From positions 1-61,760 of the IMG/VR virus record IMGVR_UViG_3300009610_000010: 61,760 nt of DNA, one strand, 5' to 3'. Source of the stretch: a virus. This document shows, in pieces, positions 5,868 through 41,337 of the stretch (position 1 is its first letter; every line of letters begins with the position of its first letter). A program made the translations under genes and the position numbers. The notes below the pieces were generated by a model. It was not told where the DNA came from and made no database searches. It saw only the letters and a program-made list of their open reading frames with translations.

Positions 5868-6502
5868 ATGACCTCCACACGGGGCCTCCGAAACAGAATC
5901 GCATTGCCCCATTGCTGGTGCAACTCGTAGCCGGCACCCTCCTGCGCCCACGCGCTCTGCACCCCAGGGCCAAACTGTGGCCACCAGTCGTCGAGCAACA
6001 ACCACGTGGGCTGCAACGCCCGCGCCAGGCGCAGGTCACTAGCCACCGTGTCGTGATCGTGACCACCGTCGATGAACATGAGGTCGGGCCCGGCGCCCAG
6101 GGCCATCGCAACGGCCGTCGCCGACAACTGGCGCGAGTCGGTGTTGATGAAAAAGAACCGCCCCGGGTGCCGCCGCTGCACCACCGTGACACCAGCCAAG
6201 GCCGATGGATTGGCTGTCCAATCGACCGACACCACCCGGCGAATGCCCGGCGCCAGCCCCAACAACATGCTGGCACTGCACCCCGCGCCGAAGCCGATTT
6301 CAACAACGTGCTCGGGCTGGGCCATGGCCAGCACCGCCTTGAAAAAGAACAGGCTGTGCGCCTCGCTGCCATACATGGCATCGCGCGGCAGGCCGTAGGT
6401 CAGCTGGGCATACTCCTCGGCATCGGCGACCGAGTGCCGGCGGTACTCAGCCACCTGCTCGTCGGTGGCCGTGGGCTGGCTGTCGTAGTCTCGCGCGCTC
6501 AT
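5864..6502 (-). CDS. Class I SAM-dependent methyltransferase
   Basis: Motif I VVEIGFGAGCS; MFIDGGHDHD (CmcI/O-MT-like); ATGA overlap with the upstream gene. Confidence 0.65.
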   Translation of the reverse strand: MSARDYDSQPTATDEQVAEYRRHSVADAEEYAQLTYGLPRDAMYGSEAHSLFFFKAVLAMAQPEHVVEIGFGAGCSASMLLGLAPGIRRVVSVDWTANPSALAGVTVVQRRHPGRFFFINTDSRQLSATAVAMALGAGPDLMFIDGGHDHDTVASDLRLARALQPTWLLLDDWWPQFGPGVQSAWAQEGAGYELHQQWGNAILFRRPRVEVI

Positions 6503-7095
6503 GGGTGCTGCAGCACCATGCCCGAGTGCACCGGGTCCACCGTGGCCCGCACCGGCTGGGGATGGCACGTGGCCAGGAACTCGGCCGTGGCCTCGGTGGC
6601 CCCCCGGCACCCGGGACTGCCGGGGTCGTCCAGCACCAACACCCCACCTGGTGAAAGCAGCCCCCAAAACCTGGGGAGCGCCAGCCAGTACGATCGGTAG
6701 GTATCGGCGTCGATGTGCACCGCGGCCAGCGGCACGGCCGGCACCATGGCCGGGTCGAACTCGCCCACGTGATACACCACGGCGTGGCCCACCAGCAGCG
6801 CCTGCACGGCCTCCAGGCTGGTGTCGCCAAAGTCGCCCGCCTGGTGGGCGTCGATGGACTCAACGGCGCTCGCCGGGATGCCCGCAAACGTGTCGTACAG
6901 GTGCAGCGTGCGGCCCTGCGCCAGGGCCAGGTGCGCCAGCAGGCGGGCCGAGCCGCCCCGCCACACCCCAAACTCGGCCAAGTCGCCCGGCACCGCCACC
7001 AGGGCCTGCACCTCGTCCCACAGGCGCTGCAGCTTGGGCCAGGGCGATGCCGCCACCACCGGGCTGGCGGCCAGCACCTCGTCAAACGTCGCCAC
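6499..7095 (-). CDS. TylF/MycF-like sugar O-methyltransferase
   Basis: LAEFGVWRGGSARLL motif and HIDADTYRS, typical of the macrocin-O-methyltransferase family. GTG start. Confidence 0.6.
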   Translation of the reverse strand: MATFDEVLAASPVVAASPWPKLQRLWDEVQALVAVPGDLAEFGVWRGGSARLLAHLALAQGRTLHLYDTFAGIPASAVESIDAHQAGDFGDTSLEAVQALLVGHAVVYHVGEFDPAMVPAVPLAAVHIDADTYRSYWLALPRFWGLLSPGGVLVLDDPGSPGCRGATEATAEFLATCHPQPVRATVDPVHSGMVLQHP

Positions 7096-7876
7096 GGGGC
7101 TCCGCCAGGGCCAGCCACCCCGCGGCTGCCGCGGGGTGGGGCATGGGCAGTGGGCTCAGCTCCTGGGGCGGGATGATGTCGTACGGCCTGAAACCCGTGC
7201 CCGCCTGCTGCATGTGCACCACCCTTTGGTCGGGCACGCTGTGCGGCCCCCAAAACCAGCTTTGCATTTCGATCGCCTTGGTGATCAGCGCCTGCCCACT
7301 GCGCACAAATCCATAGTGGAACAGAGTCACCCGGTCAACCATGCGGCGGTCGGGCCCGTGCGGCTCCACGATGCTTTCGGCATCGCCGCCTGCGGGCACC
7401 CCCTGCAGCCCGATGCGCGTGGGCTCGTCTGAGCAGGGTTTGAGCCGCGAGCCCAGGCTAATGTGATGGTCCAAGTCGCCATACAGGTTCAATCGCCGAA
7501 CCCTGAACGCTTGCTGTCCCCAGCCATCGGCCGCCACCAGGGCGCGCAGCGCTGTGTAGCTCGACTCGTGCAGCACCTCGTCGGCCTGAATCATAAAGTG
7601 CCACCGGGCGCGCACGAGTTCGCGCGCGGCGTTGGCCAGGATCATCAAGCGCTCGTAGTTGCCGGCCTGCTCCCACGGCACGTTGGGAAACACTCGCACA
7701 TTGCTGTGCCGTGTTTCGATCGTGCGCAACAGCGCCAGCGTGTCATCGGTCGAGTGACAGTCGAGCACCACCACGTCGTCGCACACGGGCACCAACGATT
7801 CGATCGCCGCCTCGACACAGTAATCCAGGCGCACGGCGTCACGCACAAACAGCGAGCCGCCAAGCCCCGTGCTCAT
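7082..7876 (-). CDS. GT2-like (GT-A fold) glycosyltransferase
   Basis: VVVLDCHSTDDTLALL nucleotide-sugar binding motif. ATGA overlap with the upstream gene. Confidence 0.55.
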   Translation of the reverse strand: MSTGLGGSLFVRDAVRLDYCVEAAIESLVPVCDDVVVLDCHSTDDTLALLRTIETRHSNVRVFPNVPWEQAGNYERLMILANAARELVRARWHFMIQADEVLHESSYTALRALVAADGWGQQAFRVRRLNLYGDLDHHISLGSRLKPCSDEPTRIGLQGVPAGGDAESIVEPHGPDRRMVDRVTLFHYGFVRSGQALITKAIEMQSWFWGPHSVPDQRVVHMQQAGTGFRPYDIIPPQELSPLPMPHPAAAAGWLALAEPRGDV

Positions 7877-9918
7877 GTTGGCTTCCTGGCAATAATGAGA
7901 AAGCTGTACCGCTCGGTCTGGTAGTGTCGCTCGGGCCGTTCAGCCAGTGGCACGTCGTCCACGTCCAGAACATTAACCAGGATTTCCGCATCGAAGGCAT
8001 CGGCCAGCACCTCGGCAATCATGTCCTGGGTGAAAGCGTGCTTGTGGTCGGCGTTCCATGCGTTGTCGTAGTAGTCGCGATGCGGCAAGTACAGGCCCAG
8101 CACTCCACCGGGCTTGATCGCGAGCCACCACTGCAGCAGCACCGCGCGGAAATCGTGCAGGTGCTCAAGGCAGTGGCTCGACCACACCCAGTCTAGCGAC
8201 CCAGGGGCGAATGGGAAGTCGTAGTTTAGGTCCACCTCGACCTCGGCCCCACTACCCAGCGCATCGACGCCCGTGGCCGTGGGCGTGATTTTTTCGTAGG
8301 GCCCACATCCCACATCCACCCCACGGTAGCCTACCAGGTGTGGCAGCACATGGTGGCGCACCTTGCTGGTTTCGCTCACAACAAAGAGCCTCCCCAGGGC
8401 CGACCGCACACGGCCCAGTTCGAGCGTTTCCATGCAGGCCACGTCGCCGCGCTCACACCCGCACCACTCGTACCGCGGCGGGCTGTAGCGGTGATGGCAC
8501 CCAAGGCATGGCAGGTGCTCCTGCTGCACCACGGCTAGCGTTTCATGCAAGCAGCGCATGTTGGGATCAATGGCCCCAAAGAACACCACCGCGGGCTTTT
8601 TGTATGCCTGTGCCACGTGGAACGGAGCACTGTCGATGCCCACAAACGCGGCCGACCGTTCGATCACGTTGGCCAGCTGTGGCAGCGTCAGGTCGTGCAG
8701 GTTCATATCGGCATCCATGGGCGCCGCCGGCATGCCAATGCTGATGGGCCTGAACCCACGCGCCCGCACCAGGTCGGCAATGCCGGGCCACAGGCGGGCC
8801 GGCACGTTACGCCCCGGCCAGGCGGTGGGCTGCATGTGAATGGCCACGAATGGCTCATCGGGTAACCCGGCCACATGCTCCTGCGCGTACAGTTCGGGCA
8901 CGGTGCGCGAGCTGTCGATGCGCACCAGGCTGGCCGTGTTGATGCGCGCCACGTATGCCGCCCACGCACTGATTTGTGGGGTGCCCTCGTACACACCGTC
9001 CAAGTCGTACACGTAGTCACACTCGCCCGCTTGTTCGGGCGACAGCACGCCGGCCACGTGTGGGTTGCCGGCGAAGACCTCGCCATAGCGTGTGGCCACA
9101 AAAATGCGCGCCTCCGGCCACTCATCGTGAATCAACCTGGGCAGCGGGCTGGCCATGAGCACATCACCCAGGCTGCCAGTGCGGCGCAGGCACACGCGCG
9201 CATCAAACCGGCGCACTCGCAGGTAGTAGCCCCACCGGGTGCGCAGGTTGGCGTGGGCCAGCTCGCGCGCCGGTGTCAGGTCGTACGTCACGCCGTGGCC
9301 GTTGTTGGTGGGCTCGTTCACGTGTGTCAGCGGCACATCACGCACGGCCAGCCAGTAGCCCCGCTGCCGCAGCCGTAGAGAAAAGTCGGCGTCCTCGCAC
9401 CCAAACTGCCCGTAGAACGTCGGGTCGCACAGCCCGATGCGCTTGGCCACGTCGGTGCGCACCATGAAGCAACTACCGTCGATGTACTCCAGTGGCTCGC
9501 CCACATGGCCCACCCCGTCGTCACCCAGCCGGCCGTGGGTGCCCGAGCGCCCCACCTGCGCCACGCGCTCGTGGTCAAACCCCGCGCGCAGGCCCTCGAT
9601 CAGGCCTGGCCCGGGGGTGGCGTCGTTGTCCACCGACAAAAACCACGGCGCAGTGCAGTGCTCCAGGGCGATGTTTTTGCCCTCACTGATGCCCTTGTTC
9701 TCGGCGTGGTGCAGCACGCGCACCCCGGGGTGGCTGTCGGCGACCGTGGCCAGCCACTCGGCGGTGCCATCGGTCGATCCGTTGTTGGTGATGAGCAGCT
9801 CGGTACCGGCAGGGCGGTGCTCCAGCAGCGCCGTCACGCAGCGCTGGGTGCGATCGAGTCGGTTGTGGCACAGCACACTCACACAGTATTCCCACTCGCT
9901 CACGGCTTTGCTCTCCAT
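7873..9918 (-). CDS. Three-domain fusion: GT2 glycosyltransferase + GT9 (heptosyltransferase-type) + SAM methyltransferase
   Basis: N-terminal: VSVLCHNR...LITNNGSTDGTAEWL and SVDNDA (DxD). Middle: RRTGSLGDVLMASPLPRL plus the Cys cluster CLGCHH...CGCERGDVAC. C-terminal: GVDVGCGP...LEHL...KPGGVL. Start taken at ATG 9918. Confidence 0.65.
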   Translation of the reverse strand: MESKAVSEWEYCVSVLCHNRLDRTQRCVTALLEHRPAGTELLITNNGSTDGTAEWLATVADSHPGVRVLHHAENKGISEGKNIALEHCTAPWFLSVDNDATPGPGLIEGLRAGFDHERVAQVGRSGTHGRLGDDGVGHVGEPLEYIDGSCFMVRTDVAKRIGLCDPTFYGQFGCEDADFSLRLRQRGYWLAVRDVPLTHVNEPTNNGHGVTYDLTPARELAHANLRTRWGYYLRVRRFDARVCLRRTGSLGDVLMASPLPRLIHDEWPEARIFVATRYGEVFAGNPHVAGVLSPEQAGECDYVYDLDGVYEGTPQISAWAAYVARINTASLVRIDSSRTVPELYAQEHVAGLPDEPFVAIHMQPTAWPGRNVPARLWPGIADLVRARGFRPISIGMPAAPMDADMNLHDLTLPQLANVIERSAAFVGIDSAPFHVAQAYKKPAVVFFGAIDPNMRCLHETLAVVQQEHLPCLGCHHRYSPPRYEWCGCERGDVACMETLELGRVRSALGRLFVVSETSKVRHHVLPHLVGYRGVDVGCGPYEKITPTATGVDALGSGAEVEVDLNYDFPFAPGSLDWVWSSHCLEHLHDFRAVLLQWWLAIKPGGVLGLYLPHRDYYDNAWNADHKHAFTQDMIAEVLADAFDAEILVNVLDVDDVPLAERPERHYQTERYSFLIIARKPT

Positions 9919-9976
9919 TTGAAAAGTGAGGGGGCGCAATGGCACCGCAGCACCGCTTTTTCTCTGCTCCACCACG

Positions 9977-10342
9977 TCATGGCCGAAACCACCTGAAATA
10001 GTTAAGAGCAATCGGCAGCGCGACGGCAAGGAAAACCGCCACCGCGGCAATCTTTTCCAGCGCAGCGATGCGCGTGTTCAGCTCCTTGAGGTCGGCGCTG
10101 TGCGTCTCCCTCGGCAGGTAGGCCGCCTTGTCCACCGTGGCCTGCGCGTGCGCGTGGTTCAGCTCGTCCAAACGGCGGGCCATCTCCATCGCCCGCTCGC
10201 GCTGCAGGTCGTTGTCCAGTCGGGCCGCCAGCTGCGTGGCCTTTTCCATGGCCGTGAAGCGCGCTTCGATGATCTTATCGAACGCCCCGAAGCGGAACTC
10301 CAGGATCTTCTCGAAGTATTCCTGCAACCCCACACGATTCAC
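9977..10342 (-). CDS. Coiled-coil protein with a C-terminal transmembrane anchor (holin/spanin-type lysis candidate)
   Basis: GTGA overlap start (alternative GTG at 10360). C-terminal AAVAVFLAVALPIALNYF. Positioned after the tail genes. Confidence 0.5.
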   Translation of the reverse strand: MNRVGLQEYFEKILEFRFGAFDKIIEARFTAMEKATQLAARLDNDLQRERAMEMARRLDELNHAHAQATVDKAAYLPRETHSADLKELNTRIAALEKIAAVAVFLAVALPIALNYFRWFRP

Positions 10343-10566
10343 TTTTGATTCTCCCACCACGTTGGGTCCACACGGTGGTCGATCGTGCCATCGCGCCGCA
10401 CCACAAAGTCACTCTCCGCTGGGTCACGGTTGGGCTTGTCCCGCCGGCCGATGTACCGCACCATGACATCCTTCGACTGGGCACATGCCACCCGCCACCC
10501 CAGCTCGCGCGCCCGCGGGAGGCACAACGCCACCTCGTCCAGCCCTTCGATCTGCCACCGCCCCAT
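10339..10566 (-). CDS. Hypothetical protein (75 aa)
   Basis: ATG start; operon context. Confidence 0.5.
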   Translation of the reverse strand: MGRWQIEGLDEVALCLPRARELGWRVACAQSKDVMVRYIGRRDKPNRDPAESDFVVRRDGTIDHRVDPTWWENQK

Positions 10567-10569
10567 GGC

Positions 10570-22349: not shown

Positions 22350-22505
22350 TCACCGTCCTCTTGGCCCGCGGCTTTTCACGGGCTGCGCGGGCTGCCGATA
22401 CAGTGGAAACCGATCATCGTTGCTGCCAGCGCACAGCGCTGCCGCCACTATGCCGGCGAAAAAGCCCAGGAACAGGCCGATCAACAACGCCACCCATGGA
22501 GTCAT
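22350..22505 (-). CDS. Small single-pass membrane protein (51 aa)
   Basis: ATGA overlap with the fibre-gene stop. MTPWVALLIGLFLGFFAGIVAAAL. Confidence 0.45.
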   Translation of the reverse strand: MTPWVALLIGLFLGFFAGIVAAALCAGSNDDRFPLYRQPAQPVKSRGPRGR

Positions 22506-25500
22506 AGGGGCACCCCCTCGAAAGTGTCCACCACTGCGCCACTGCCACCGCCACCGGTGGGCGTGCAGGGCGGGTCGCACGCTTCGACGTGGCTGCGCAT
22601 GCGTCCACCGTTGAGCGTGGCGGGCAGGCGCGTTTGCAGGTTGTCCAGGTCGGCCTGGGCCACCGCCATAGCCGCGAGGATGTCGTCGATTAGGTTCTGG
22701 TTGGCCCCCGCCGAGCCAGCAACCAGGTGCCCGGCCAGCCCCTCGTCCCACACTGCAGCAGCAATCACCGCGGCCGATGCCCCACTGCCGGCGTTGTTCA
22801 GGGCCTCACCGGTCGAGCCCACCGCGAGGTGCCCGGCGAGCGGCTCGTTCCACGTTTGGTCTACGATCTCATCCACGGCATCAGTAGCGATCGCATCGGC
22901 GTCAATCGCCCCCGTGGCAATCACTGCCGCGGTGATCGTTCCAGCGTCCATCGCTTCCACGTGCGAGCGCATGCGCCCGCCCACGAGAGACGCCGGTAGC
23001 CTGGTCTGAATGTTGTCCGTGTCGGCCTGGACCCCGGCGATTGCCGTTTCGAGCGTGCCCGTGCCAGTAGTCGGAGCGACCGATCCGGTGACGCCGAGCG
23101 CCTGCCGAATCTGATCCCGCTCGCCTGCCGTCCAATCGGTTGCCCCCGAAGCTGCGGCCGTTCCGATTGCCGTCCGGAGAATCGAGTAATCATTCGTCGA
23201 GATCGCCTGCGTGAAGGCGGGATCGACCGTGAGCGTATCGGTCCCGGGATTGAAGTCCGTGATCCGCCGGATCTGACCCGAAGTCGAGCCAGAGCGGATG
23301 TAGAGGAGCGATCCCTCCCAATAGTCGGCGTCCGCCTGCGTGAGAGCGGCATCGACGAGTGTGGTAGTCGAGCCTGAATCGGCGGTTCCGGTGAAGGCCG
23401 AAATGATTTCGACCGCCGCGTCTTCGGCGAGCGCGTCGGCATCGATGGCGCCGGTGGCAATCGATGCCGACGTGATCCCGCCGGCTGCGACCGAGCCGAC
23501 CGACCCGTTGACGTTGCCGTTGACATTGCCGCCGACGTTGCCGGTCACGCTCCCGACCGAACCGCTGAGGCTCCCCTGAATGTCGGCGTTTAGGTCGAAC
23601 CCGGCACCGGCACCGACCAGCTCCATGCCGTCGCCAGCCGTCGGAGCGATCGCATGGATGCCATCGCCACTGGTTGCCCCGCCGACCGCATCGAGCCCGT
23701 GGCCGGTGGCGCCGGCTTCGAGCCGCATCCCGGCGCCAACGCCGTCGCCGAACCCGTAGATGCCGTGTCCGCTGACGCCCGACTGCCCCACGATGCCCGA
23801 GTTGCCAGCCGTGCCCCCGCCGATCGCCTGGAAGCCGTGCCCGTTGGCGTTGGCCTGGACCCGGAAGCCGTCGCCGGACGTGGCGCCCGCGAAGCCGTGG
23901 AACCCGTGCCCCGTGGGCCCACCGTTCCCCCGCACGCCAGAGCCGGTCCCGGTGCCGACCCCGAGAAGTCCATGCCCGTTGGGAGCCCCGCCCGTGCCGA
24001 CGATGCCGGCCCCTGACGTGGTCCCGCCCGTGCCGGCGATTCCGGCCTGAGTCCCGGCACCGATCGCCGAGAAGCCGGAGGCATTCCCCCCACCAGCGTT
24101 GGCAACGATGCCGGTCCCGGAGGTCGGCCCGCCCGTCGCCACGATGCCAAAGCCCGTGTCGATGCCGACGGCCTGGAAACCATGCCCGGTTGAGCCGCCG
24201 ACCGTCCCGCCTTGGGCTCGGATGCCCGCGCCGGTCCCGGTCCCCTCGGCGTAGATACCGCGCCCGTTCCCGCCGGCCGTGACGGCCTCGACCGCGTCGC
24301 CCGTAGCCGTGCGGGCACTGATGGCCGGCCCAGCGGAGTTGTCGATGTCGATCGCCCCGGCGGCCGTGGTCGAGTTGATCCTGAGCTGCTCCAGGGTCAG
24401 CTTGTTGCCACCCGTGCCGTCGAGCATCGTCTCGAAGGCATCCGCCGCCGCGGCATCGCCGGAGACGCGGACCATATCAGCCAGCACGTATTCCCCGAAG
24501 CTGCCGGCAATAACATGGCCTGCGCGTAGCTCATCCCACACCGCGTCGGCTACCTGGCCGGCGGTTGGAGCGCTGCCGGCCGCTGATCCTACCCCCGTCC
24601 GCAAGATCAAGTAATTGTTGGTGCTGATCGCCTGGGTGAAAGCCGGGTCTACAGTGATCGTGTCGGTGCCCGGGTCGAACGCCGTGATCCGCCGGATCTG
24701 ACCGACCGTACTACCGCTCGTGATGAGGACCAAGGAGTTGACCCAGTAGTCCGTGTCGGCCTCGGTGCGGGCGGCATCGACAATCGTGGTCGTCGAGCCC
24801 GAATCTGCGGTGCCCGACACGGCAGCAATGATCTCGTCGGCCGCGTCCGAGGCCAGCGCCGAGGCCGTAATTGAGTTGGCGGCAAAGCTCGCCGCGGTGA
24901 TCCCACCGGCGGCAATCGAGCCCACCGAGCCGACCACATTGCCTCCGACATTTCCAGAGAGCGAGCCCTGAATGTCGGCGTTGATGTCGAAACCACCACC
25001 AGCGCCGACGGCCTCGATCCCGTCGCCCACGTTAGTTGCAATGGCATGGATCCCATCGCCAGACGTAACCCCGCCAGCAGCGTTGATCCCGTGGCCGGTG
25101 GTCCCGCCCTGCGCTTCGATGCCGTGGCCTACGCCATTGCCGAGCGCGCGTATGCCCGATGCGCCGCCCTGACCGAGCGCGCGCATGCCTTCGCCGCCTC
25201 CCACCGCTCCTGTGGCGAGGATCCCAACGGCCGTTCCGACGCCTCCAGCAATGGCATTGATCCCGTTGCCCGAGCTAGCGTCGGCGCGGATTCCGTCGCC
25301 CGACGTGGCGCCGGCCGAGGCCCGAATCCCGTTCCCGTCATCGCCACCTATGGCGTTGATCCCATCGCCAGTCCCGTTTCCGAACGCAATGATACCGGCG
25401 GTGCTGAGCCCGCCACCCTCGGCTTGGATGCCGTTGCCTGCGGATCCACCGATCGCGCGAAGGCCGGGGAAGTTCACGTTTCCGATGGCGGCTATCCCGC

Positions 25501-26419
25501 AGCCAGTCGTCCCTCCATCGCGTCCCTGAGCGCGAATCCCGTCGCCGTCCCCGGTGGTCGAGAACATGGCTCCATGCCCGCTCAACACGCCCCCGGTCCC
25601 GTTGAGGCCATGCCCGGTCGCTCCTGCGGCGGCATTGATACCGCTTCCGGATCCGTCGCCAACGGCACTGATGCCATGACCACCGCCCGCGGCGATGAAG
25701 CTCGCACCATTCCCCGTGGCGCCTCCAGTCCCGAGGACTCCGGCTCCGGAGCCCGCCCCGGCGGCGGCGATCCCTCGGCCGTTGGTCGCGCCGCCCGCGG
25801 CGTTGATCCCGTCGCCGTTGGTCGCGCCGCCCGTCGCGATGAGCCCGTGACCGGAGCCCTGGCCCGTGACCGCGAGCCCGCTGCCACTACCCCCGGTCGA
25901 GACGAACTCGCCCGCGACCCCGCTGGATGTGCGCGCCGAGAAGGCAGGCCCGGTTGAGTTGTCGATGTCGATGGCGCCGCCCGCGGCCGACGAGTTGACG
26001 CGCAGCTGTGCCACCGTGAGCACGTTGCCGCCCGTGCCGTCGAGCATCGTTTCGAGCGCATCGGCGGCTGGCGCGTCGCCCGAGATTTGCACCACGTTCG
26101 AGGCGACAGCCGACAAGCCAAGGCTTACGCCGTCGTGCGGATTTGAATTCGTCGTAACGAAATTGGCGCCGACCGGAATGGACCCGATAGCCGTGAAGAT
26201 ATAGCCTACGTGGTCGCCGTTGGTGTCGGCAGCACTCGGGTCGAACCTATACTGACCGAGGCCCATTTCGGTCACGGTGCCCGTGGCCGCGGCCTGCGCT
26301 CCGCCGTCGATCGAGCGATTCACGTTGGGGCTCAAGCCTGTGACGCCGGCACCCGTCGTGGTGCTGATCATCACGAAGAATACGCGCTGACCGGCGACGT
26401 TCTGGCGCAGTGTGCTCAT
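22502..26419 (-). CDS. Giant Gly-rich repeat fibre/decoration protein (1305 aa) with two duplicated ~430-500 aa modules
   Basis: Dozens of ~10-aa GGxTxGxGIxA-type units. Module 1 is roughly aa 111-608 and module 2 roughly aa 651-1083. The C-terminus has a duplicated D-N-I/L-QTRLPA..GGRMRSHVEA motif. Confidence 0.75.
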   Translation of the reverse strand: MSTLRQNVAGQRVFFVMISTTTGAGVTGLSPNVNRSIDGGAQAAATGTVTEMGLGQYRFDPSAADTNGDHVGYIFTAIGSIPVGANFVTTNSNPHDGVSLGLSAVASNVVQISGDAPAADALETMLDGTGGNVLTVAQLRVNSSAAGGAIDIDNSTGPAFSARTSSGVAGEFVSTGGSGSGLAVTGQGSGHGLIATGGATNGDGINAAGGATNGRGIAAAGAGSGAGVLGTGGATGNGASFIAAGGGHGISAVGDGSGSGINAAAGATGHGLNGTGGVLSGHGAMFSTTGDGDGIRAQGRDGGTTGCGIAAIGNVNFPGLRAIGGSAGNGIQAEGGGLSTAGIIAFGNGTGDGINAIGGDDGNGIRASAGATSGDGIRADASSGNGINAIAGGVGTAVGILATGAVGGGEGMRALGQGGASGIRALGNGVGHGIEAQGGTTGHGINAAGGVTSGDGIHAIATNVGDGIEAVGAGGGFDINADIQGSLSGNVGGNVVGSVGSIAAGGITAASFAANSITASALASDAADEIIAAVSGTADSGSTTTIVDAARTEADTDYWVNSLVLITSGSTVGQIRRITAFDPGTDTITVDPAFTQAISTNNYLILRTGVGSAAGSAPTAGQVADAVWDELRAGHVIAGSFGEYVLADMVRVSGDAAAADAFETMLDGTGGNKLTLEQLRINSTTAAGAIDIDNSAGPAISARTATGDAVEAVTAGGNGRGIYAEGTGTGAGIRAQGGTVGGSTGHGFQAVGIDTGFGIVATGGPTSGTGIVANAGGGNASGFSAIGAGTQAGIAGTGGTTSGAGIVGTGGAPNGHGLLGVGTGTGSGVRGNGGPTGHGFHGFAGATSGDGFRVQANANGHGFQAIGGGTAGNSGIVGQSGVSGHGIYGFGDGVGAGMRLEAGATGHGLDAVGGATSGDGIHAIAPTAGDGMELVGAGAGFDLNADIQGSLSGSVGSVTGNVGGNVNGNVNGSVGSVAAGGITSASIATGAIDADALAEDAAVEIISAFTGTADSGSTTTLVDAALTQADADYWEGSLLYIRSGSTSGQIRRITDFNPGTDTLTVDPAFTQAISTNDYSILRTAIGTAAASGATDWTAGERDQIRQALGVTGSVAPTTGTGTLETAIAGVQADTDNIQTRLPASLVGGRMRSHVEAMDAGTITAAVIATGAIDADAIATDAVDEIVDQTWNEPLAGHLAVGSTGEALNNAGSGASAAVIAAAVWDEGLAGHLVAGSAGANQNLIDDILAAMAVAQADLDNLQTRLPATLNGGRMRSHVEACDPPCTPTGGGGSGAVVDTFEGVPL

Positions 26420-26790
26420 TGCACGTCAAACCCCGTGCCCATGTTGACCTTGGCACCCCACGCGGGCGAAAAAGTCACAGCCGCTGCCATCGCTTCGAAT
26501 TGCTGCTTATGGCGCCAAGTGGTCGGAGCAAAATAGGCGTATTGCTGCGTCACGCTCGGCGTCGTCACGACCGAGCCGGTGAGGGCATACGTCTCATGCG
26601 CTGAGGCGTAGCGCATCCGAAACTCGTTCGCCGGTTGACCGAGCACGTCGAATCCGTCGTAGCAACCACCACCGAGAAGGGCACCCCAATATTTCCCGAT
26701 GACCCTTGCGTTGGTCGCGGTGAACGCTCCTTCTTGGTCGGCCATGAATTGCCAGCCGCGCGTCGTAGCCGCGATTCGGAAGAACGACAT
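26416..26790 (-). CDS. Hypothetical structural-module protein (124 aa)
   Basis: TAATG overlap with paralog 3; ATGA overlap with the fibre gene. Confidence 0.55.
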   Translation of the reverse strand: MSFFRIAATTRGWQFMADQEGAFTATNARVIGKYWGALLGGGCYDGFDVLGQPANEFRMRYASAHETYALTGSVVTTPSVTQQYAYFAPTTWRHKQQFEAMAAAVTFSPAWGAKVNMGTGFDVQ

Positions 26791-27269
26791 TAGAAGTCCA
26801 TCCAGTCCTCCAACCATGTGACACTAATGTCCATGATCGGAGTGATTACGGCCGCAACCTGGATCATCGCGACGCCCGCCCCCGGGCCGATCTCGATTCC
26901 ACCGGGGATCGGGTAGACCATCCCCCCTCCCTGGATGTTGTGGTAAGACACTCGCGGACCTAGATCGACTGACGAAGCCAAGAGCGTTGGTTGGACCGAA
27001 TAGGCTGACATGTCGAGAAGCGCTCCCGATACCGGTGCCACCCCGAGCATCGAGTGGTTGGAGCTATTCGGGGTCACAGTTGACCCGGGTGTCCCGCGCG
27101 CCGAGATCCTTCGCAAGCGCCACGACGTTCCCGCGGTCGGCGTTCCCTGCGCGAACATGGACCAACGCAGCAACTTGATCCTCTGGGTCGAGTGCGGATT
27201 CCACAGCGCCCACACCGCATGGTCGGCGTTGTTGCCACTAGCTGCCGTTCGCCCAGCGCACGAGTACAT
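26790..27269 (-). CDS. Tandem paralog 3 of a 159-aa family (unknown function)
   Basis: Shares ADHAVWALWNPHSTQRI..WSMFAQ...RLRRISARGT.GSTVTPNSSNHS.LGVAP...AYSVQPTLLAS...GAGVAMIQ...WLEDW with the two upstream genes. Confidence 0.7.
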   Translation of the reverse strand: MYSCAGRTAASGNNADHAVWALWNPHSTQRIKLLRWSMFAQGTPTAGTSWRLRRISARGTPGSTVTPNSSNHSMLGVAPVSGALLDMSAYSVQPTLLASSVDLGPRVSYHNIQGGGMVYPIPGGIEIGPGAGVAMIQVAAVITPIMDISVTWLEDWMDF

Positions 27270-27273
27270 TCTC

Positions 27274-27750
27274 TTACATCCAATCCTCTAGCCACGTCAC
27301 CCCAATGTCGAACACGACTGAGATGGTGGCCGGGACCTGGATCATCGCGACTCCGGCTCCAGGTCCAATCTCAAGGCCGCCTGGGATCGGGTAGATGATT
27401 CCCGAGCCTTGAACGGCTGAGAACACGAACCGCGGCCCCAAGTCAACCGACGATGCAAGCAACGTCGGTTGCACCGAGTAGGCCGCTAGATCGAGTAGCA
27501 CGCCGGATACCGGCGCGACCCCGAGCGTCGAGTGGTTCGAGCTGTTCGGCGTGACCGTAGAGCCCGCCGTGCCTCGGGCCGAGATTCGACGTAGCCGGCA
27601 AGCCCACCCGGCGGCTGGCGCCGCACTCTGAGCGAACATCGACCAGTTGATGACCTTGATCCGCTGCGTCGAGTGCGGATTCCAAAATCCCCACACGGCA
27701 TGGTCGGCGGTCCCTGCGGTCGCCGCGTTTCGTCCGGTGACGGTGTACAT
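27274..27750 (-). CDS. Tandem paralog 2 of the 159-aa family
   Basis: Same family as paralog 3. TAATG junction with paralog 1. Confidence 0.7.
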   Translation of the reverse strand: MYTVTGRNAATAGTADHAVWGFWNPHSTQRIKVINWSMFAQSAAPAAGWACRLRRISARGTAGSTVTPNSSNHSTLGVAPVSGVLLDLAAYSVQPTLLASSVDLGPRFVFSAVQGSGIIYPIPGGLEIGPGAGVAMIQVPATISVVFDIGVTWLEDWM

Positions 27751-28229
27751 TAGATCCAGTCCTCCAACCAAACCACCGTGTTGTCGTAGGCCACCGAGGC
27801 CGCGGCATTGAGCTGAATCATCGCGATCCCCGCCCCGGGAGGGATTTCGATGGCACTATCGAAGTCCAGGACCACGCCGCATCCTTGAAGCGTAGCCATA
27901 ATCCATGGCTCTCCTATGTCCACCGCGCTCGCGAGCAGCGTGGGTTGAACCGTATAGGCACCCAGGTCGAAGAGCGCGCCCGATGGCGGGGCCACTCCTA
28001 GCAGTGAGTGGTTCGAGCTATTCGGCGTCACCGTCGATCCCGCCGTGCCTCGGGCCGAGATTCGGCGCAGGCGACAGCTCCACCCACCGAGGGGGTTTCC
28101 GCCTTGCGCGAACATCGACCACTGGATGAGGCGAATCCGCTGGGTCGAGTGCGGATTCCACAGCGCCCACACCGCATGGTCGGCGGTTGCTGCGGTCGCT
28201 GTGCTTCTTCCTGATGCCGAGTAGGACAT
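27750..28229 (-). CDS. Tandem paralog 1 of the 159-aa family
   Basis: Same family as paralogs 2 and 3. TAATG junction with the upstream small gene. Confidence 0.7.
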   Translation of the reverse strand: MSYSASGRSTATAATADHAVWALWNPHSTQRIRLIQWSMFAQGGNPLGGWSCRLRRISARGTAGSTVTPNSSNHSLLGVAPPSGALFDLGAYTVQPTLLASAVDIGEPWIMATLQGCGVVLDFDSAIEIPPGAGIAMIQLNAAASVAYDNTVVWLEDWI

Positions 28230-28477
28230 TAGCCATCCGTTGTGTCATCGATCGGCGGCGTCGAAGCCACCGGCGCCGTTACATACCCTTGTGGCAAGAC
28301 CGGCACCCACTCGTCATCCTCGGTCTCGCGCCAGAACACCTTAAGGTTCGGCGGCACGCTTTGTGTGTCGGCCGCCACCATGAGGAAAGGCCCGTCCTCC
28401 TGGTCCGAGCTGTTTACTAGGTCGGCGATCAACTCGAAGGCTTCTGCCCAGGTCACCATGTGCTTTGCTCCCTTCAT
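28229..28477 (-). CDS. Hypothetical acidic protein (82 aa)
   Basis: TAATG overlaps at both ends. Confidence 0.5.
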   Translation of the reverse strand: MKGAKHMVTWAEAFELIADLVNSSDQEDGPFLMVAADTQSVPPNLKVFWRETEDDEWVPVLPQGYVTAPVASTPPIDDTTDG

Positions 28478-29616
28478 TAATTGGCCTCTGCCAGGGCGCC
28501 AAACTGCACCGGCTGCCATGCCGGCGCATCGGCTGGTGCGGCCAGCGCCGCCCGGTAGTGGTAGGGCGGTGAATGCTGGGCCATCCATTCGATCTCTTCC
28601 CACACGCGGGTGGGGGTCACGGCCACTGCGCACTTGGTTTCACCCGGTGGCAGGCCACACGTCGGCGCGTGGTAGCACGGGGCACAAGGCACACCGGCAT
28701 ACAGCGTGCGCACGTGGGTGTAGTGCACGGCCCGGGCCTCGGGCACCACCGTCGTGAAGTAGCCCACCGTGCGCACGCGCAGTGCTTCGGCCAGGTGCAC
28801 CACGCCCGTATCGGGCGTCACCAGGAAGTCCAGGCTCGACACCACTGCGATCAGGGCCGGCACGGTCAGATGCCCGGCCAAGCTGCGCACCCCGGCAGCG
28901 GCCAGGCGCGGCGTCAGCTGGTGGGCCACGTCGTCCAGCAGCACAGCGCGCATGCCGTGGTCAAAGGCCAGCTCGGCCAGGTGCTCGACGTGGCGCAGTG
29001 GCCAGTTGCGCATGCCCGACTGGCTGTGGCTGCCCACCGCGATACCCACCACCGGGCGCCCATGCTCCAGGGCGCCCGTGATGCTGCTCCCACGCAGCAC
29101 CTCGTCGGGGTGGGGCACCATCGGATACGCCCAGGCGTCGGGGGCCACGCCGTTGAGCAGGTACTTGGCGAACACCGCCAGGCGGTCGTATCGCTCGCGC
29201 CCGTCGCGCTCGCTGTAGCCGCGCAGGTCGATGCACCACTGAAAGCGCCCGTGCAGGTCGCTCAGGGGCACGGTGCGGTGCAGGAACGTGGCGTCGCGCA
29301 TCAGGGGCACAAACTCGTGGCTCGTGGCGTAGGTGAACCGCAGCGCTGGGTACCGCTGGGCCAGGGCGCGCAGCCCGGGCAGCACCATGAGCACGTCGCC
29401 CAGGCCGCCGGTGCGAATGACCGGCACCTCGGTGCCGGCGGGAGCGCGGGCCAGCCGGCTGGGGTGCGCCATTTGCAGCTCGTGGTTGGGGTCCTCGAAA
29501 CCCTGCGTCAGCAGGAACAGGTAGTCGCCATCGGGCACCACCTGCGGCTCACCCCGGCGGAAATGCCGCCCATTGTGCTGAAAGGTTAGGCTGCGGCGCA
29601 GCACGATCTCAGGCAC
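28477..29616 (-). CDS. GT9-family (heptosyltransferase-type) glycosyltransferase inside the capsid module
   Basis: VPVIRTGGLGDVLMVLPGLRAL, VVGIAVGS, LVTPDTGVVHLAEAL, and C-terminal Cys cluster CAPCYHAPTCGLPPGETKC. The start is uncertain: GTG 29616 chosen, and the open frame extends to 29718. Confidence 0.65.
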   Translation of the reverse strand: MPEIVLRRSLTFQHNGRHFRRGEPQVVPDGDYLFLLTQGFEDPNHELQMAHPSRLARAPAGTEVPVIRTGGLGDVLMVLPGLRALAQRYPALRFTYATSHEFVPLMRDATFLHRTVPLSDLHGRFQWCIDLRGYSERDGRERYDRLAVFAKYLLNGVAPDAWAYPMVPHPDEVLRGSSITGALEHGRPVVGIAVGSHSQSGMRNWPLRHVEHLAELAFDHGMRAVLLDDVAHQLTPRLAAAGVRSLAGHLTVPALIAVVSSLDFLVTPDTGVVHLAEALRVRTVGYFTTVVPEARAVHYTHVRTLYAGVPCAPCYHAPTCGLPPGETKCAVAVTPTRVWEEIEWMAQHSPPYHYRAALAAPADAPAWQPVQFGALAEAN

Positions 29617-29845
29617 GGGTGGGGTGGTCCTTTCGGTTGTTCGGTCGCCCCTTTGGGAGGCTGGGGCTGGGCAGGTGTGTTGCCCCCGCTTTGGGGCTTG
29701 GCAGGGTGCGCGGCCCACGGAGGTGGCGCCCCAGGGTCGCGCCGGCCCGGAGAGCCCCTAAGCGACCGACTCTTGCCCGGGACGCACCCACGTGGGCCGC
29801 GCACCCTGCCATCCCGCGAAACGGGTCGAAGCGGTTGGCACTGCC

Positions 29846-29884
29846 CCCGGGCGGCGCCCCCATCCCTGGGAGCCACCGCCCGGG
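29846..29884 (-). other. Strong GC stem-loop just downstream of the capsid gene
   Basis: cccgggcgg ... ccgcccggg (9 bp), with no U-tract. Possible RNA stabiliser or attenuator. Confidence 0.35.
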
Positions 29885-29909
29885 CGTGCGTGAGTTACGT
29901 CAGCGGGCT

Positions 29910-31022
29910 TTATGAGCCCAGGTTCAGGCACGTGTTGCAGCGCCCAGCCCCCAGGGCAGGAGCGGTGCAGCTGGTGGCGCAAGCGTCGAGCTGAGCGCAA
30001 TCCAGCAGTGCGGTTTGGTCCTCGTTGAAAATCAGCGCATCCATGCGGAACGTCCAAATGAGCCACGTCAGGTGGCGGGGGGCATCGCGCCACCGCTCGA
30101 AAGTGATGTTCTTTTCGATGCCCACCACGAAGTTGGCCGGATCGCTCGCCACAGCGAACGTCCCGGTGGCCGTGGACAACGACTCGCACCCGCAAGCACG
30201 CAGGTCGGTGGGAATGAGCGCAATAGGCACAATGGGCGACAGCATGTGCTCGCGCGGCGCCGGGCCCAGCAGCGAGCGATCGCCCAGCACGGTTTCGCGG
30301 CCCTGGTGCAGCTCGGCAAAGTCGTGCCACATGTCGGTGGGCATGAAAATGTTGATTTGCTCGGGGTTGCGCCGGTACTTGGTCGGTATGGCTCGCAGCA
30401 GGCAGTTCAGCTTGTGGAACGTGATAGTGCGGTCGCCAGCGTCGGCCCCGGAGAAGCCCCCGGCGTTAAGGATGTGGCCCTGCTGCAGCTGGCGGTACCA
30501 CATGTCGCTGGAGTGCATCACGCTGCCGTTTAGCTTGGTGTCGGCGTTGTAGCTGTTGTTGGTGTTGCCCATCCAGGCCAGCAGCTCACCCTCTTTGGCC
30601 ATCGTCTCACCGGTCATGCGTATGAGCTGCTGCTCTAGCTGGGGGCCGGTGATGCCGTCCTGCAGGTCGTCATCGCAGAGAAAGAACTTCACATCGAGGC
30701 TGATGGTCTTCAAACACTTGTTTGTGTTCGAAATGGTGACCGACTCCTCGGGCGTGGCGTTGCAGGTGGCCAGCCGCATGATGCCACCGTTCATCGACAG
30801 GAACCGAATGTCCTGCTCGTTGGTGGACATTCGCTCGATCGTGGCCAGGCGAAACATCTGCGATTCGTCTTGTACGTAGTCGATCAGCCGATCGGCTTCC
30901 TCGGGCTGGATAATGGCGGGCGCTACGCTGCGGAGCAGAAACTTGGCCTGCTCGTGCTTCGTAAGGCGTCGCCCTTCGGCAACCCGCGGGTGCGCCAGCA
31001 GCGCATGCCCTTGTGACAGCAT
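29910..31022 (-). CDS. Major capsid protein (HK97-fold type) with a Cys-rich C-terminal tail
   Basis: 370 aa with the strongest SD of the region (GGGGGAGGA). Follows protease and scaffold. The last ~30 aa contain 6 Cys. Confidence 0.7.
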   Translation of the reverse strand: MLSQGHALLAHPRVAEGRRLTKHEQAKFLLRSVAPAIIQPEEADRLIDYVQDESQMFRLATIERMSTNEQDIRFLSMNGGIMRLATCNATPEESVTISNTNKCLKTISLDVKFFLCDDDLQDGITGPQLEQQLIRMTGETMAKEGELLAWMGNTNNSYNADTKLNGSVMHSSDMWYRQLQQGHILNAGGFSGADAGDRTITFHKLNCLLRAIPTKYRRNPEQINIFMPTDMWHDFAELHQGRETVLGDRSLLGPAPREHMLSPIVPIALIPTDLRACGCESLSTATGTFAVASDPANFVVGIEKNITFERWRDAPRHLTWLIWTFRMDALIFNEDQTALLDCAQLDACATSCTAPALGAGRCNTCLNLGS

Positions 31023-41335: not shown

Positions 41336-41337
41336 TG

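Follow-up and report, generated by a model that had tools for sequence, protein, structure and literature searches.

To our knowledge, a few mycobacteriophages are so far the only phages whose virions have been shown to be glycosylated by their own enzymes, a modification that alters antibody recognition, and we know of no GT9 enzyme among the virion glycosyltransferases of these phages. The only characterised protein-directed GT9 enzyme of which we are aware is TibC, an autotransporter heptosyltransferase. In mycobacteriophages, phage-encoded glycosyltransferases are described as glycosylating the capsid and tail-tube subunits, the glycans being located on the C-termini of these proteins (Freeman et al., 2023, Cell Host Microbe 31:1216). 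TibC possesses an N-terminal flattened 8-stranded beta-barrel (residues 1-97) and a beta-hairpin thumb in its C-lobe which is needed for the dodecamer, while its iron-finger Cys4 mediates oligomerisation and its sugar-binding residues are Lys230, Arg286 and Trp305 (and Pro/Ser300) (PMC4358343). Elsewhere, a YqbF-type protein follows the capsid gene. Bacillus phage 0105phi7-2 encodes gp6, an XkdG-type major capsid protein (MCP), and then gp7, which is YqbF-related. Phage RBClin15 has a stand-alone YqbF gene directly after its XkdG-type capsid gene (PMC11526630).

In the window examined here (the whole stretch of 61,760 nucleotides of viral DNA), a GT9-family gene is located behind a capsid gene. 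We regard it as an evenly balanced proposition that its product is a head-targeted glycosyltransferase which decorates a virion protein. The features of the locus are as follows:

29910..31022, minus strand: major capsid protein, 370 aa, XkdG/HK97-like (PHROG 1623 at 1.1e-33), a candidate acceptor
29617..29909, minus strand: structured spacer of 293 nt from the capsid gene to the GT9 gene (MFE -173 kcal/mol, z=-4.7)
28477..29616, minus strand: GT9-family glycosyltransferase gene, 379 aa with a GTG start (Pfam PF01075)
29473..29616, minus strand: predicted YqbF-like head-module domain of the GT9 protein, residues ~1-48, with a conserved extension to about residue 60
29062..29436, minus strand: short GT-B N-lobe, residues ~61-185, with the predicted catalytic Asp74 in RTGGLGDVLM
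28480..29061, minus strand: donor-binding C-lobe, residues ~186-379, with R203/W205 and PDTGxxHLAEA, which aligns to the donor-binding lobes of WaaF/WaaC
28630..28686, minus strand: Cys4 cluster C311-x2-C314-x5-C320-x8-C329, a putative metal finger, invariant in homologues
27750-28229, 27274-27750 and 26790-27269, minus strand: three tandem paralogues of 159, 158 and 159 aa, candidate acceptors
22502..26419, minus strand: Gly/Ala-rich repeat protein, 1305 aa, a candidate head/neck fibre and candidate acceptor

An earlier note on this DNA had placed the GT9 gene downstream of the capsid gene within the head module, and this is confirmed, the gene lying 293 nt after that of the MCP on the minus strand. 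The note had also put it upstream of three 159-aa paralogues and a fibre of Gly/Ser/Thr-rich repeats. The order is right, except that two small ORFs intervene: the GT9 gene is followed by an 82-aa ORF, the three paralogues, a 124-aa ORF and the 1305-aa protein. The paralogues are indeed three in number, although one of them has 158 aa; they share 64-73% pairwise identity, have no Pfam or PHROG matches and are present in only a subset of the GT9-bearing relatives. The short repeats of the 1305-aa protein are Gly-rich as claimed, but mainly Gly/Ala (G 21.5%, A 16%, T 9.6%, S 7.4%). The protein is internally duplicated, has 46 core motifs with a spacing of mostly 11-12 aa and is probably solenoid-like. 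Homologues of it were found in most GT9 loci, with the family shrunk to 164 aa without repeats in one of them (L065). The MCP, which by tblastn also matches annotated capsid proteins, contains 11 Cys and has a conserved Cys-rich C-terminal tail.

The 379-aa ORF matches PF01075 at E=2.3e-12 (47.2 bits against a cut-off of 22), and the same domain is present in 20 of 20 database homologues. The GTG start is supported by the N-terminus MPEIVLRRSLTF, which is kept across homologues. In the AF2 model (pLDDT 90) the protein adopts a GT-B fold; the best PDB fold matches are WaaF, a Veillonella GT9, WaaC and TibC, and all of the top 30 are GT9 enzymes. Among 18 GT9 homologues of 36-100% identity, D74, R203/W205 and P268-D269-T270-G271..H274 are invariant. 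On alignment D74 corresponds to WaaC D13, R203/W205 to the WaaC K192 region and D269-T270-G271..H274 to the WaaC D261 motif. On account of the invariant motifs and the high-scoring model the enzyme looks active, and the gene product is predicted to be a soluble, catalytically competent GT9. Its N-lobe has only four strands in the AF2 secondary structure (63-67, 93-98, 114-117 and 123-130), and 195 aa separate the catalytic Asp from the donor motif, as against ~190 aa in TibC and 248 aa in WaaC. In the phage protein a YqbF-like N-domain is joined to a GT9 core with a shortened four-stranded N-lobe and a putative Cys4 metal finger.

The N-domain was identified by both profile and structure comparison. 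A profile built from 28 N-domains had B. subtilis YqbF (2hjq) as its best PDB match (E=4.6e-4), and Pfam YqbF (PF14553) was the top family, with matches to 5 of the 28, each single member falling below the usual significance level. Comparison by hhalign with the 'YqbF-related head module protein' of Bacillus phage 0105phi7-2 gave E=1.4e-4; two unrelated small post-capsid proteins, taken as controls for the N-domain, gave E ~0.3. The AF2 model of the domain (62 aa) shows three short strands and a helix over ~45-60 aa, with 2hjq again as the top fold match (probability 1.0, TMq 0.63, E 0.06) and all other fold matches at E>1. With moderate confidence, the profiles and the model indicate that the N-terminus of the GT9 protein is a YqbF-like head-module domain. 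The phage GT9 and YqbF have in common the post-capsid slot, right after an XkdG-type capsid gene, and a sequence pattern and fold in the N-terminal ~45 residues. However, YqbF of the B. subtilis skin prophage (2HJQ) is a ~100-aa stand-alone protein, whereas here only an N-domain is found, fused to an enzyme.

Occupation of the YqbF slot by a protein carrying a YqbF-like domain would also be in keeping with a non-catalytic role, like that of YqbF, in assembling or completing the head, with the GT9 body as a binding or structural module, for example lectin-like or nucleotide-sugar-sensing. The Cys4 finger could be accommodated in such a role, as that of TibC mediates oligomerisation (PMC4358343). 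However, not one catalytic or donor-binding residue varies among homologues of 36-100% identity, extra glycosyltransferase and methyltransferase genes co-occur, and in one relative (L030) sugar-modifying genes lie beside the GT9 gene; a purely structural function is scarcely probable.

The adjacency of MCP and GT9 is retained in nearly every relative, with GT9 identities down to 27-36% and MCP identities to 36-38%. The GT9 gene directly follows that of the MCP in the window's contigs and in L001, L002, L008, L010, L011, L012-L029, L031 and L063-L066, and in the two exceptions (L030 and L033) it is still only 1.9-4.6 kb away. Dozens of independent metagenomic contigs show this order of genes, which is therefore not a product of chance. 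The spacer between the two genes contains inverted repeats at 29846-29884 (16-nt arms) and 29685-29825 (41-nt arms), and GC-rich hairpins occur in the same spacer of relatives. No Rfam match was found for it; it is likely to be a terminator/attenuator or to form mRNA-stabilising hairpins.

The GT9 homologues all come from metagenomic phage contigs. None was found at E<=1e-5 in 50,697 GenBank phage genomes, and a search of 185,579 species genomes returned one weak match only (26% identity). Together with the permuted phage contigs, these results indicate that the gene is not cellular, and the permuted assemblies, of about 61.6-61.7 kb, point to a free phage genome. The lineage to which the phage belongs is uncultured and consists of high-GC, siphovirus-like soil phages, and in it the GT9 gene forms a core part of the head module. 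Its nearest cultured relatives mostly infect Gram-positive actinobacteria, and the host may not even be Gram-negative. More widely, a large, hitherto unrecognised and apparently viral GT9 group was found, with 219 representative clusters at E<1e-30. Many of these clusters have tandem GT9 domains and some have inteins.

By sequence, the enzymes nearest to the catalytic core are WaaC (HepI) and WaaF (HepII), both of them LPS heptosyltransferases. A search of the PDB with the GT9 family profile (hmmsearch) matched WaaF and WaaC at ~1e-14, and hhalign against single sequences gave 97% (7e-11) for WaaC and 96.6% (6e-10) for WaaF, compared with 65% (E 6e-5) for TibC, the latter match being limited to the C-lobe. 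The best sequence and fold matches are 1psw, 2gt1 and 2h1h. Shared with WaaC and WaaF are the GT-B fold, the catalytic Asp in G-x-GD, a basic residue before W-P (Arg203 in the phage enzyme) and the D-T/S-G..H donor motif. The phage enzyme differs from them in its N-lobe, which is ~55 aa shorter and four-stranded (the WaaF alignment requires ~70 residues of insertion there), in the extra YqbF-like N-domain, in the Cys4 cluster, which E. coli WaaC and WaaF do not have, and in being encoded in a phage head operon rather than a waa cluster. A full-size Kdo2-lipid A acceptor lobe is ruled out by the four strands and by the 195 aa found where WaaC has 248. Membership of the WaaC, WaaF and WaaQ equivalogs was likewise rejected, the scores being far under every NCBIfam cut-off (46 against 185 bits for TIGR02193, 40 against 135 for TIGR02195 and 23 against 170 for TIGR02201). 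A gene of a cellular waa/rfa cluster is ruled out by the phage head operon present on all contigs.

Phages are known to carry glycosyltransferases which modify surface glycans, and the sugar acceptor of this enzyme might be a glycolipid or polysaccharide of the host (the LPS inner core or an analogous cell-wall glycan); such remodelling of the envelope could block superinfection or keep progeny from sticking to debris. This would fit WaaC and WaaF as the closest relatives of known function, the LPS-type D-T-G..H donor motif and the GtrB-like PHROG match of a 725-aa protein encoded in the same genome. It is nevertheless unlikely, given the low equivalog scores, the truncated acceptor-side N-lobe and the fusion to a head-module domain. 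Moreover, the gene keeps its place in the late head operon throughout a wide lineage, unlike a variable moron, no integrase was seen among the ~45 ORFs scanned, and the actinobacterial hosts of most of the nearest cultured relatives are without LPS.

The same comparisons bear on the proposal in the earlier note that the enzyme is an analogue of the autotransporter heptosyltransferases (TibC/Aah), to be compared with these and with WaaC/WaaF. Taken as family membership, this was not upheld: by hhalign and hmmsearch the protein is nearer in sequence to WaaC/WaaF, the TibC match being far weaker. TibC had no match at E<=10 when the PDB was searched with the family profile by hmmsearch, and among NCBIfam models at E<=1 only LPS heptosyltransferase models and a weak EboA-domain match were returned, with no model for bacterial autotransporter heptosyltransferases (BAHT). 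Neither a beta-barrel nor a beta-hairpin thumb is present in the AF2 model, in which the N-domain is small and alpha/beta instead of an 8-stranded barrel. The donor motif is of the WaaC type (D-T-G..H) where TibC has P-S-G..W, and hhalign sets D269 opposite P300 and H274 opposite W305. The basic residue is Arg203 and not a Lys as in TibC (Lys230). Both enzymes have an extra domain at the N-terminus and an N-lobe reduced to four strands, and their spacing from catalytic Asp to donor motif is nearly equal; in both TibC/Aah and the present phage the gene adjoins that of a candidate protein substrate, though no autotransporter was found in the window.

The C-terminal Cys cluster, earlier given as CxxC-x5-C-x9-C, does exist, with a last spacing of x8. 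Its four Cys are invariant in 18 of 18 family members and pair one-to-one with the iron-finger Cys339/342/358/370 of TibC, the phage loops being shorter. The accompanying caution that the cluster is not diagnostic proved sound, as P0020, a classical-looking cellular GT9 of LPS-type appearance whose N-lobe is complete, bears a similar Cys4 cluster in this position.

The short N-lobe, the extra N-terminal domain, the Cys4 alignment with the TibC iron finger and the long, probably solenoid-like repeat protein encoded downstream would together be consistent with hyper-heptosylation of the BAHT type, in which a ring-shaped oligomer processively heptosylates Ser residues of the 1305-aa fibre. We consider this rather improbable. 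The barrel is missing, as is the thumb that the TibC dodecamer requires, TibC W305 and P300 are not conserved, the profile search did not recover TibC at E<=10, and the Cys4 cluster is shared with P0020. The repeats themselves are Gly/Ala-rich and absent from several GT9-bearing relatives. The earlier suggestion that the fibre repeats are the target is also weakened, because some GT9-bearing relatives have only the 164-aa version.

Further genes for sugar modification are present at the distal end of the tail module, ~20 kb from the post-capsid GT9:

7873..10050, minus strand: tri-domain enzyme of 725 aa with GT2, a second GT9 and a SAM methyltransferase (Pfam)
7082..7876, minus strand: GT2-like protein of 264 aa (Glyco_tranf_2_4; Pfam 2e-5, just under the gathering score)
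6499..7095, minus strand: TylF-type (macrocin) O-methyltransferase of 198 aa (Pfam PF05711, 1.4e-17)

The 725-aa protein matches PF00535 (3e-21), PF01075 (4.5e-8) and Methyltransf_11 (1.2e-5); its GT9 domain shares 26% identity with the post-capsid enzyme and contains a Cys cluster of its own. It is a probable partner in the same glycan pathway, and sugar O-methylation is the probable function of the 198-aa enzyme. In a distant phage represented by a 145-kb contig of 37% GC (L036), a GT9 is fused to a homologue of the 725-aa protein (GT9-GT2-GT9), and homologues of the GT2_4 protein (46% identical to the 264-aa protein) and of TylF follow. In L030 the MCP and GT9 genes are separated by genes for an NAD epimerase/dehydratase, a GT2, a GT2_4 and a weakly matching sulfotransferase-like protein, the epimerase being a generic NDP-sugar SDR and not HldD-like.

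The genome of the window also encodes a TET/JBP dioxygenase and a TET-associated glycosyltransferase (TAGT), raising the alternative that the GT9 extends the TET/TAGT sugar on 5-hydroxymethylcytosine of the phage DNA. The phage TET/5hmC pathways of Pyle et al. use repurposed LPS-type glycosyltransferases and can add heptose, and phage DNA glycans with two to three sugars, heptose among them, have been reconstituted (bioRxiv 10.1101/2023.12.21.572611). However, such pathways are reported to be clustered, whereas the GT9 gene is 11 kb from the TET genes, and the DNA heptosyltransferase described is T4 beta-GT-like, as are the known GT-B enzymes acting on DNA, and not a GT9 (bioRxiv 10.1101/2023.12.21.572611). 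In the close relatives L047, L049, L050 and L054 the TET and TAGT genes are absent from the syntenic TerL-portal site (they may be present elsewhere). The L047 contig also bears the MCP-GT9 pair (L016), L050 has the MCP at its end, and the L049 and L054 contigs stop short of the capsid region. More distant relatives in which the TerL and portal genes are adjacent retain GT9 as well. The retention of GT9 in relatives lacking TET/TAGT at this site means that it is independent of these genes, and a role in DNA hypermodification is highly improbable.

The suggestion of virion glycosylation made in the earlier note has thus gained support, from the invariant catalytic motifs, the conserved MCP-GT9 synteny and the YqbF-like N-domain as well as from the further glycosyltransferase and O-methyltransferase genes and the independence from TET/TAGT. 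There is a parallel with mycobacteriophages such as Che8 and Rita: genes for several glycosyltransferases and methyltransferases are present here too, and the nearest cultured relatives of the present phage are actinobacteriophages. In the F1 mycobacteriophages the glycosyltransferase genes are described as lying near the right genome end and are not reported there as fused to a head-module domain. The capsid tail of the present phage is Cys-rich rather than Ser/Thr-rich, and no Ser/Thr-rich tail like that of the glycosylated mycobacteriophage capsids was found in the MCP.

In the head-targeted reading, the GT9 would be synthesised at a low level late in infection, its gene lying downstream of the hairpin-rich spacer that follows a very highly expressed capsid gene. 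The YqbF-like domain might then bring the enzyme to capsid or procapsid proteins, where Asp74 would act as the base and a sugar would be moved from a host nucleotide-sugar onto a hydroxyl of a virion protein. The donor may be ADP-heptose, which is the default of the GT9 family; heptose-synthesis genes were not seen in the phage. The most likely acceptor would be the MCP, with the head-proximal fibre or the paralogue proteins as the alternative. Extension and O-methylation of the glycan could fall to the GT2-GT9-methyltransferase together with the GT2-like and TylF proteins, giving the particle a glycan coat. More tentative is the narrower version, in which the YqbF-like domain docks on the capsid or procapsid and the MCP is glycosylated directly, possibly with heptose, so that an O-methylated coat is begun; in it the three other enzymes would complete the coat. 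This is possible, though less likely than not.

If the narrower version is true, the enzyme would extend protein-directed GT9 activity beyond the autotransporter heptosyltransferases for the first time and underlie the first GT9-based virion glycosylation system, the orphan YqbF domain would acquire a testable capsid-targeting function, and the 219-cluster viral GT9 group would be a family of virion or protein glycosylation enzymes. The capsid and enzyme form a compact pair which can be tested by co-expression without phage culture. Genes of viral metagenomes that are annotated as GT9 ('ADP-heptose:LPS heptosyltransferase') should not be taken for LPS genes or host contamination. If the head-targeted reading is right, a whole soil phage lineage would have a glycosyltransferase built into its head-assembly module, belonging to a family otherwise known from LPS cores and autotransporter adhesins and equipped with a ready-made candidate targeting domain, and phage particle glycans would prove more varied in chemistry and more widely distributed than is now known.

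The window covers essentially the whole genome of a phage (about 61.7 kb, 66% G+C), and the same sequence was assembled from several samples as different circular permutations. The phage is siphovirus-like with a tape-measure gene, possesses only one tRNA gene (Asn) and is just 24-26% identical to its nearest cultured phages. No lysis genes or integrase were recognised with Pfam and PHROGs. The earlier note had placed a GT9-family glycosyltransferase gene after the capsid gene and upstream of a set of paralogues and a repeat protein; this ORF was found to be real, with the major capsid protein (MCP) gene immediately upstream.

28477-29616, minus strand: GT9-family glycosyltransferase gene (GTG start, 379 aa; Pfam GT9 at 2.3e-12, above the curated threshold)
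29910-31022, minus strand: major capsid protein, XkdG/HK97-like (PHROG 1623 at 1.1e-33), immediately upstream of GT9 in transcription

A longer ORF reaching to 29718 is considered unused, since the N-terminus MPEIVLRRSLTF... is kept among homologues in their alignment. Upstream of the MCP gene lie a 132-aa ORF and genes for a 539-aa Ala/Pro-rich scaffold-like protein, an XkdF-type prohead protease fusion, a Mu-F-like protein and the portal. In the 522-aa protease fusion (33128-34696, minus strand), the protease domain spans just residues 397-506, and the long Ala/Pro-rich N-terminal region varies widely in length among relatives (305-535 aa). Of the 11 Cys in the MCP, many recur in relatives, among them those of a Cys-rich C-terminal tail (DC..L..C...C......RC..C). 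Such Cys richness is uncommon in capsid proteins of the HK97/XkdG type and suggests that the protein binds metal or is cross-linked by disulfides.

Downstream of GT9 are an 82-aa ORF, three paralogues, a 124-aa ORF, a 1305-aa protein and a head-tail adaptor (PHROG 442). The paralogues and repeat protein described previously are thus present, the former being 159, 158 and 159 aa long (64-73% identity), with the correction that the 11-12-residue repeats of the internally duplicated 1305-aa protein are mainly Gly/Ala-rich. No match in PHROG or Pfam was obtained for the paralogues, the 124-aa ORF or the 1305-aa protein. The paralogue region (26400-28230, minus strand) has a G+C content of 62%, against 66-69% in neighbouring genes, with GC3 also lower, and the gene occurs in 0 to 3 copies depending on the relative. 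The 1305-aa protein (22502-26419, minus strand) is built from an internally repeated module, present as a tandem duplicate and made up of a conserved leader, ~25 Gly-rich 11-12-aa repeats and a Thr/Ser-rich globular part, with the recurring motif W(D/N)E..AGH..(A/V)GS.G.

A search of 5.8 billion proteins returned only 18 clear GT9 homologues (35-100% identical), all with PF01075 and all metagenomic. Invariant in their alignment are D74 (within RTGGLGDVLM), R203, W205, a P-D-T-G..H-L-x-E-A motif and four Cys, and HMMER alignments equate D74, R203 and D269 with D13, K192 and D261 of the LPS heptosyltransferase WaaC. On the basis of these conserved residues, the enzyme should be catalytically active. 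An AlphaFold2 model (pLDDT 90, pTM 0.88) consists of an extra N-terminal domain (residues 1-60), a four-stranded N-lobe and a normal C-lobe, and its top Foldseek matches are GT9 enzymes only. Among deposited phage genomes (50,697), GT9 genes are nearly missing. Distant blastn of the 8 kb around GT9 found no match in GenBank phages, nor did tblastn of GT9 at 1e-5; at E<=10 tblastn gave only weak matches (Campylobacter phages, one huge uncultured phage and mislabelled Salmonella contigs). The outcome was similar for P0044, a representative of the tandem GT9 proteins.

When 1.84 billion representatives were searched exhaustively with a profile, 40,116 GT9 relatives were found, 219 of them at E<1e-30. 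The spacing from the catalytic Asp to the donor motif is short in the best 150 of these (median 197 aa), and a Cys4 motif occurs in 153 of the 197 motif-defined GT9 domains across all 167 proteins compared. Many members carry two or three GT9 domains in tandem (GT9-GT9(-GT9), 600-1000 aa), and some contain inteins; Hint/intein-like inserts were seen in several of the proteins P0026-P0167, e.g., P0051, P0056, P0062 and P0066. This short-N-lobe Cys4 group looks viral.

The earlier note had drawn an analogy between the enzyme and the TibC/Aah family of bacterial autotransporter heptosyltransferases (BAHT) and proposed comparing it with TibC/Aah and with WaaC and WaaF. By identical profile-to-sequence comparison (hhalign), with TibC from ETEC H10407 and WaaF and WaaC from a Salmonella contig, the GT9 family profile matched WaaC with 97% probability (E 7e-11; profile positions 66-294, the N-lobe and most of the C-lobe), WaaF with 96.6% (E 6e-10; both lobes) and TibC with 65% (E 6e-5; C-lobe only). 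The sequence is therefore closer to the LPS enzymes than to TibC. WaaF and WaaC are also its best relatives among solved structures, both at ~1e-14 when the PDB was searched with the family profile (hmmsearch), from which TibC was absent at E<=10. The donor motif is of the LPS type, with D269 opposite P300 and H274 opposite W305 of TibC. TibC possesses a beta-barrel (residues 1-97) and a beta-hairpin thumb (PMC4358343), both without counterpart in the GT9 model. NCBIfam gave matches only to LPS heptosyltransferase models, all scoring far under their cut-offs, and a weak EboA-domain match. Alignment with WaaF requires ~70 inserted residues.

Some likeness to TibC exists nevertheless. The N-lobe is short, with 195 aa between the catalytic Asp and the donor motif compared with ~190 in TibC and 248 in WaaC, and the four Cys pair one-to-one with those of the TibC iron-finger. 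The C-terminal cluster had been noted as CxxC-x5-C-x9-C; it is present, but its last spacing is x8 (C311-x2-C314-x5-C320-x8-C329). The accompanying caution that such a cluster is not diagnostic is borne out, as P0020, a classical-looking cellular GT9 with a full-size N-lobe, also carries one, and Cys4 was rejected as a BAHT marker. Fold comparison was likewise rejected as a discriminator: whole-model Foldseek TM-scores of ~0.5-0.6 were alike for WaaF, a Veillonella GT9, WaaC and TibC, so that fold alone cannot separate the LPS type from the TibC type. From the profile comparisons, NCBIfam scores, donor motif and missing barrel and thumb, it is concluded that GT9 is neither a BAHT member nor a WaaC/WaaF/WaaQ orthologue.

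Gene order was compared across metagenomic contig loci (L-numbers) gathered by exact-protein look-ups and by scanning IMG/VR with a profile of the GT9 family and an alignment of portal proteins, together with our own BLAST and HMM comparisons. GT9 directly follows the MCP gene in the window's own contigs and in L001, L002, L008, L010, L011, L012-L029, L031 and L063-L066, and this adjacency persists down to 27-36% identity for GT9 and 36-38% for MCP. Two tandem GT9 genes are present in L011 and L031. In the two exceptions, GT9 and the capsid gene lie 1.9 kb (L033) and 4.6 kb (L030) apart. The gap in the L030 region 5600-11083 is a glycosylation island within the head module: it encodes a GT2 and a GT2_4-like protein, an NAD-dependent sugar epimerase/dehydratase (acting on NDP-sugars), a weak sulfotransferase-like protein and a possible methyltransferase. 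The epimerase was rejected as evidence for heptose, being a generic NDP-sugar SDR 26% identical to HldD. The genes downstream are variable: L002/L026 and L010/L023 are without the 159-aa paralogues, and in L065 the large repeat protein is reduced to 164 aa with its repeats gone. The constant partners of GT9 are therefore the capsid and head-assembly proteins and not the Gly-rich repeats, which weakens the earlier proposal of the fibre repeats as target. The 164-aa protein (L065: 18259-18753) keeps only the N-domain and the W(D/N)E..AGH..(A/V)GS.G motif.

The N-terminal domain of the GT9 family follows the pattern MP.IVL.R.LTY...G..FRRG.P.EV....Y..LL..G.F.DP. With a profile built from an alignment of 28 family members, the best PDB match was Bacillus subtilis YqbF (2hjq; E=4.6e-4, residues 5-37 vs. 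5-37), and YqbF was also the Pfam family most often matched by single N-domains (5 of 28). A model of the domain alone (AlphaFold2, pLDDT 85) had 2hjq as its sole notable fold match (probability 1.0, TMq 0.63, 29% identity), the remaining matches having E>1. By hhalign, the domain matched gp7 of Bacillus phage 0105phi7-2, a 'YqbF-related head module protein', at E=1.4e-4. As controls, two unrelated small proteins encoded after the capsid gene in Clostridium phage Clo-PEP-1 and Stenotrophomonas phage Summit gave E ~0.3; neither is YqbF-like, so a YqbF does not fill this slot in every phage. The capsid protein of 0105phi7-2 is distantly homologous to the MCP, and its gene is directly followed by gp7; RBClin15 has the same order of capsid and YqbF-related gene (PMC11526630). 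Given this gene order and the likeness of the domain, GT9 takes the position of YqbF and has a YqbF-like domain at its N-terminus, which may serve as a capsid-docking module. No further proteins with such an N-domain were found at E<=0.01 in the 5.8-billion-protein set. YqbF itself has a Rho-N/SAP (HeH)-type domain at its C-terminus. In L067, a distant relative without GT9, the post-capsid gene (4033-4407) encodes a protein of 124 aa whose N-terminus, judged by eye, resembles a Rho-N/SAP (HeH) motif.

The 293-nt spacer between MCP and GT9 (29617-29909, minus strand) has exceptionally strong secondary structure (MFE -173 kcal/mol, z=-4.7). A hairpin with 16-nt arms lies just past the stop codon of the capsid gene, the spacer also holds an inverted repeat whose arms are 41 nt long, and strong GC-rich hairpins occur in the same spacer of relatives. 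No credible Rfam family was matched and a U-tract is absent. The spacer would fit high expression of the capsid message and a lower level of the enzyme encoded after it.

Its closeness in sequence to WaaC and WaaF could indicate that GT9 acts on a host glycolipid or polysaccharide such as the LPS core, thereby remodelling the host envelope. We regard this as improbable, as the acceptor lobe is truncated, the enzyme is fused to a head-module domain and its position is fixed in the late head operon. Moreover, only one weak match, a MAG, was found on scanning 185,579 cellular species genomes, no integrase is present among the window ORFs scanned, and the affinities of the terminase, portal and capsid proteins are mostly to actinobacteriophages (~24-26% identity).

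Between the terminase and portal genes, the window also carries a 5hmC-type DNA hypermodification module (40526-42306, minus strand).

41338-42306, minus strand: TET/JBP-family dioxygenase (PF12851, 1.3e-18)
40526-41335, minus strand: TET-associated glycosyltransferase, TAGT (PF20691, 2e-9)

As phage 5hmC can bear multi-sugar glycans, heptose included (bioRxiv 10.1101/2023.12.21.572611), GT9 might extend the sugar added by the TET/TAGT system. This is very unlikely, however: in the close relatives L047, L049, L050 and L054 the ParB-like gene is followed directly by the 159-aa gene, with neither TET nor TAGT at that exact site, marking the pair as an indel cassette, and the contig of L047 (60.9 kb, a near-complete genome) also holds the MCP-GT9 pair (L016). 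L050 reaches MCP at its contig end. In GT9-bearing relatives that are more distant, the terminase gene lies next to the portal gene. Judged at this syntenic site, GT9 is independent of the TET/TAGT system.

A glycan-tailoring cluster is located at the far end of the tail module.

7873-10050, minus strand: GT2 + GT9 + methyltransferase protein, 725 aa
7082-7876, minus strand: GT2_4-like protein
6499-7095, minus strand: TylF-type O-methyltransferase

An unrelated 145-kb phage contig of 37% GC (L036; 9806-14478) encodes a 909-aa GT9-GT2-GT9 fusion, followed by GT2_4-like and TylF homologues and a sulfotransferase; its GT9 domain is only 24% identical to GT9 of the window. This fusion and clustering link the enzyme types into one pathway. 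The L036 cluster adjoins a Volactin-family gene.

Virion glycosylation is known in mycobacteriophages (Freeman et al., 2023, as cited in other papers), and autotransporters are known to be heptosylated by GT9 enzymes (PMC4358343). No published case was found of a GT9 that belongs to a phage head module and bears a fused YqbF-like domain. The most likely reading, held with even confidence, is that GT9 is a head-targeted glycosyltransferase that decorates some virion protein; the foremost candidate acceptor is the capsid protein. So read, it would somewhat resemble TibC in being protein-directed with an accessory N-domain and a short N-lobe, yet it stands outside the TibC family.
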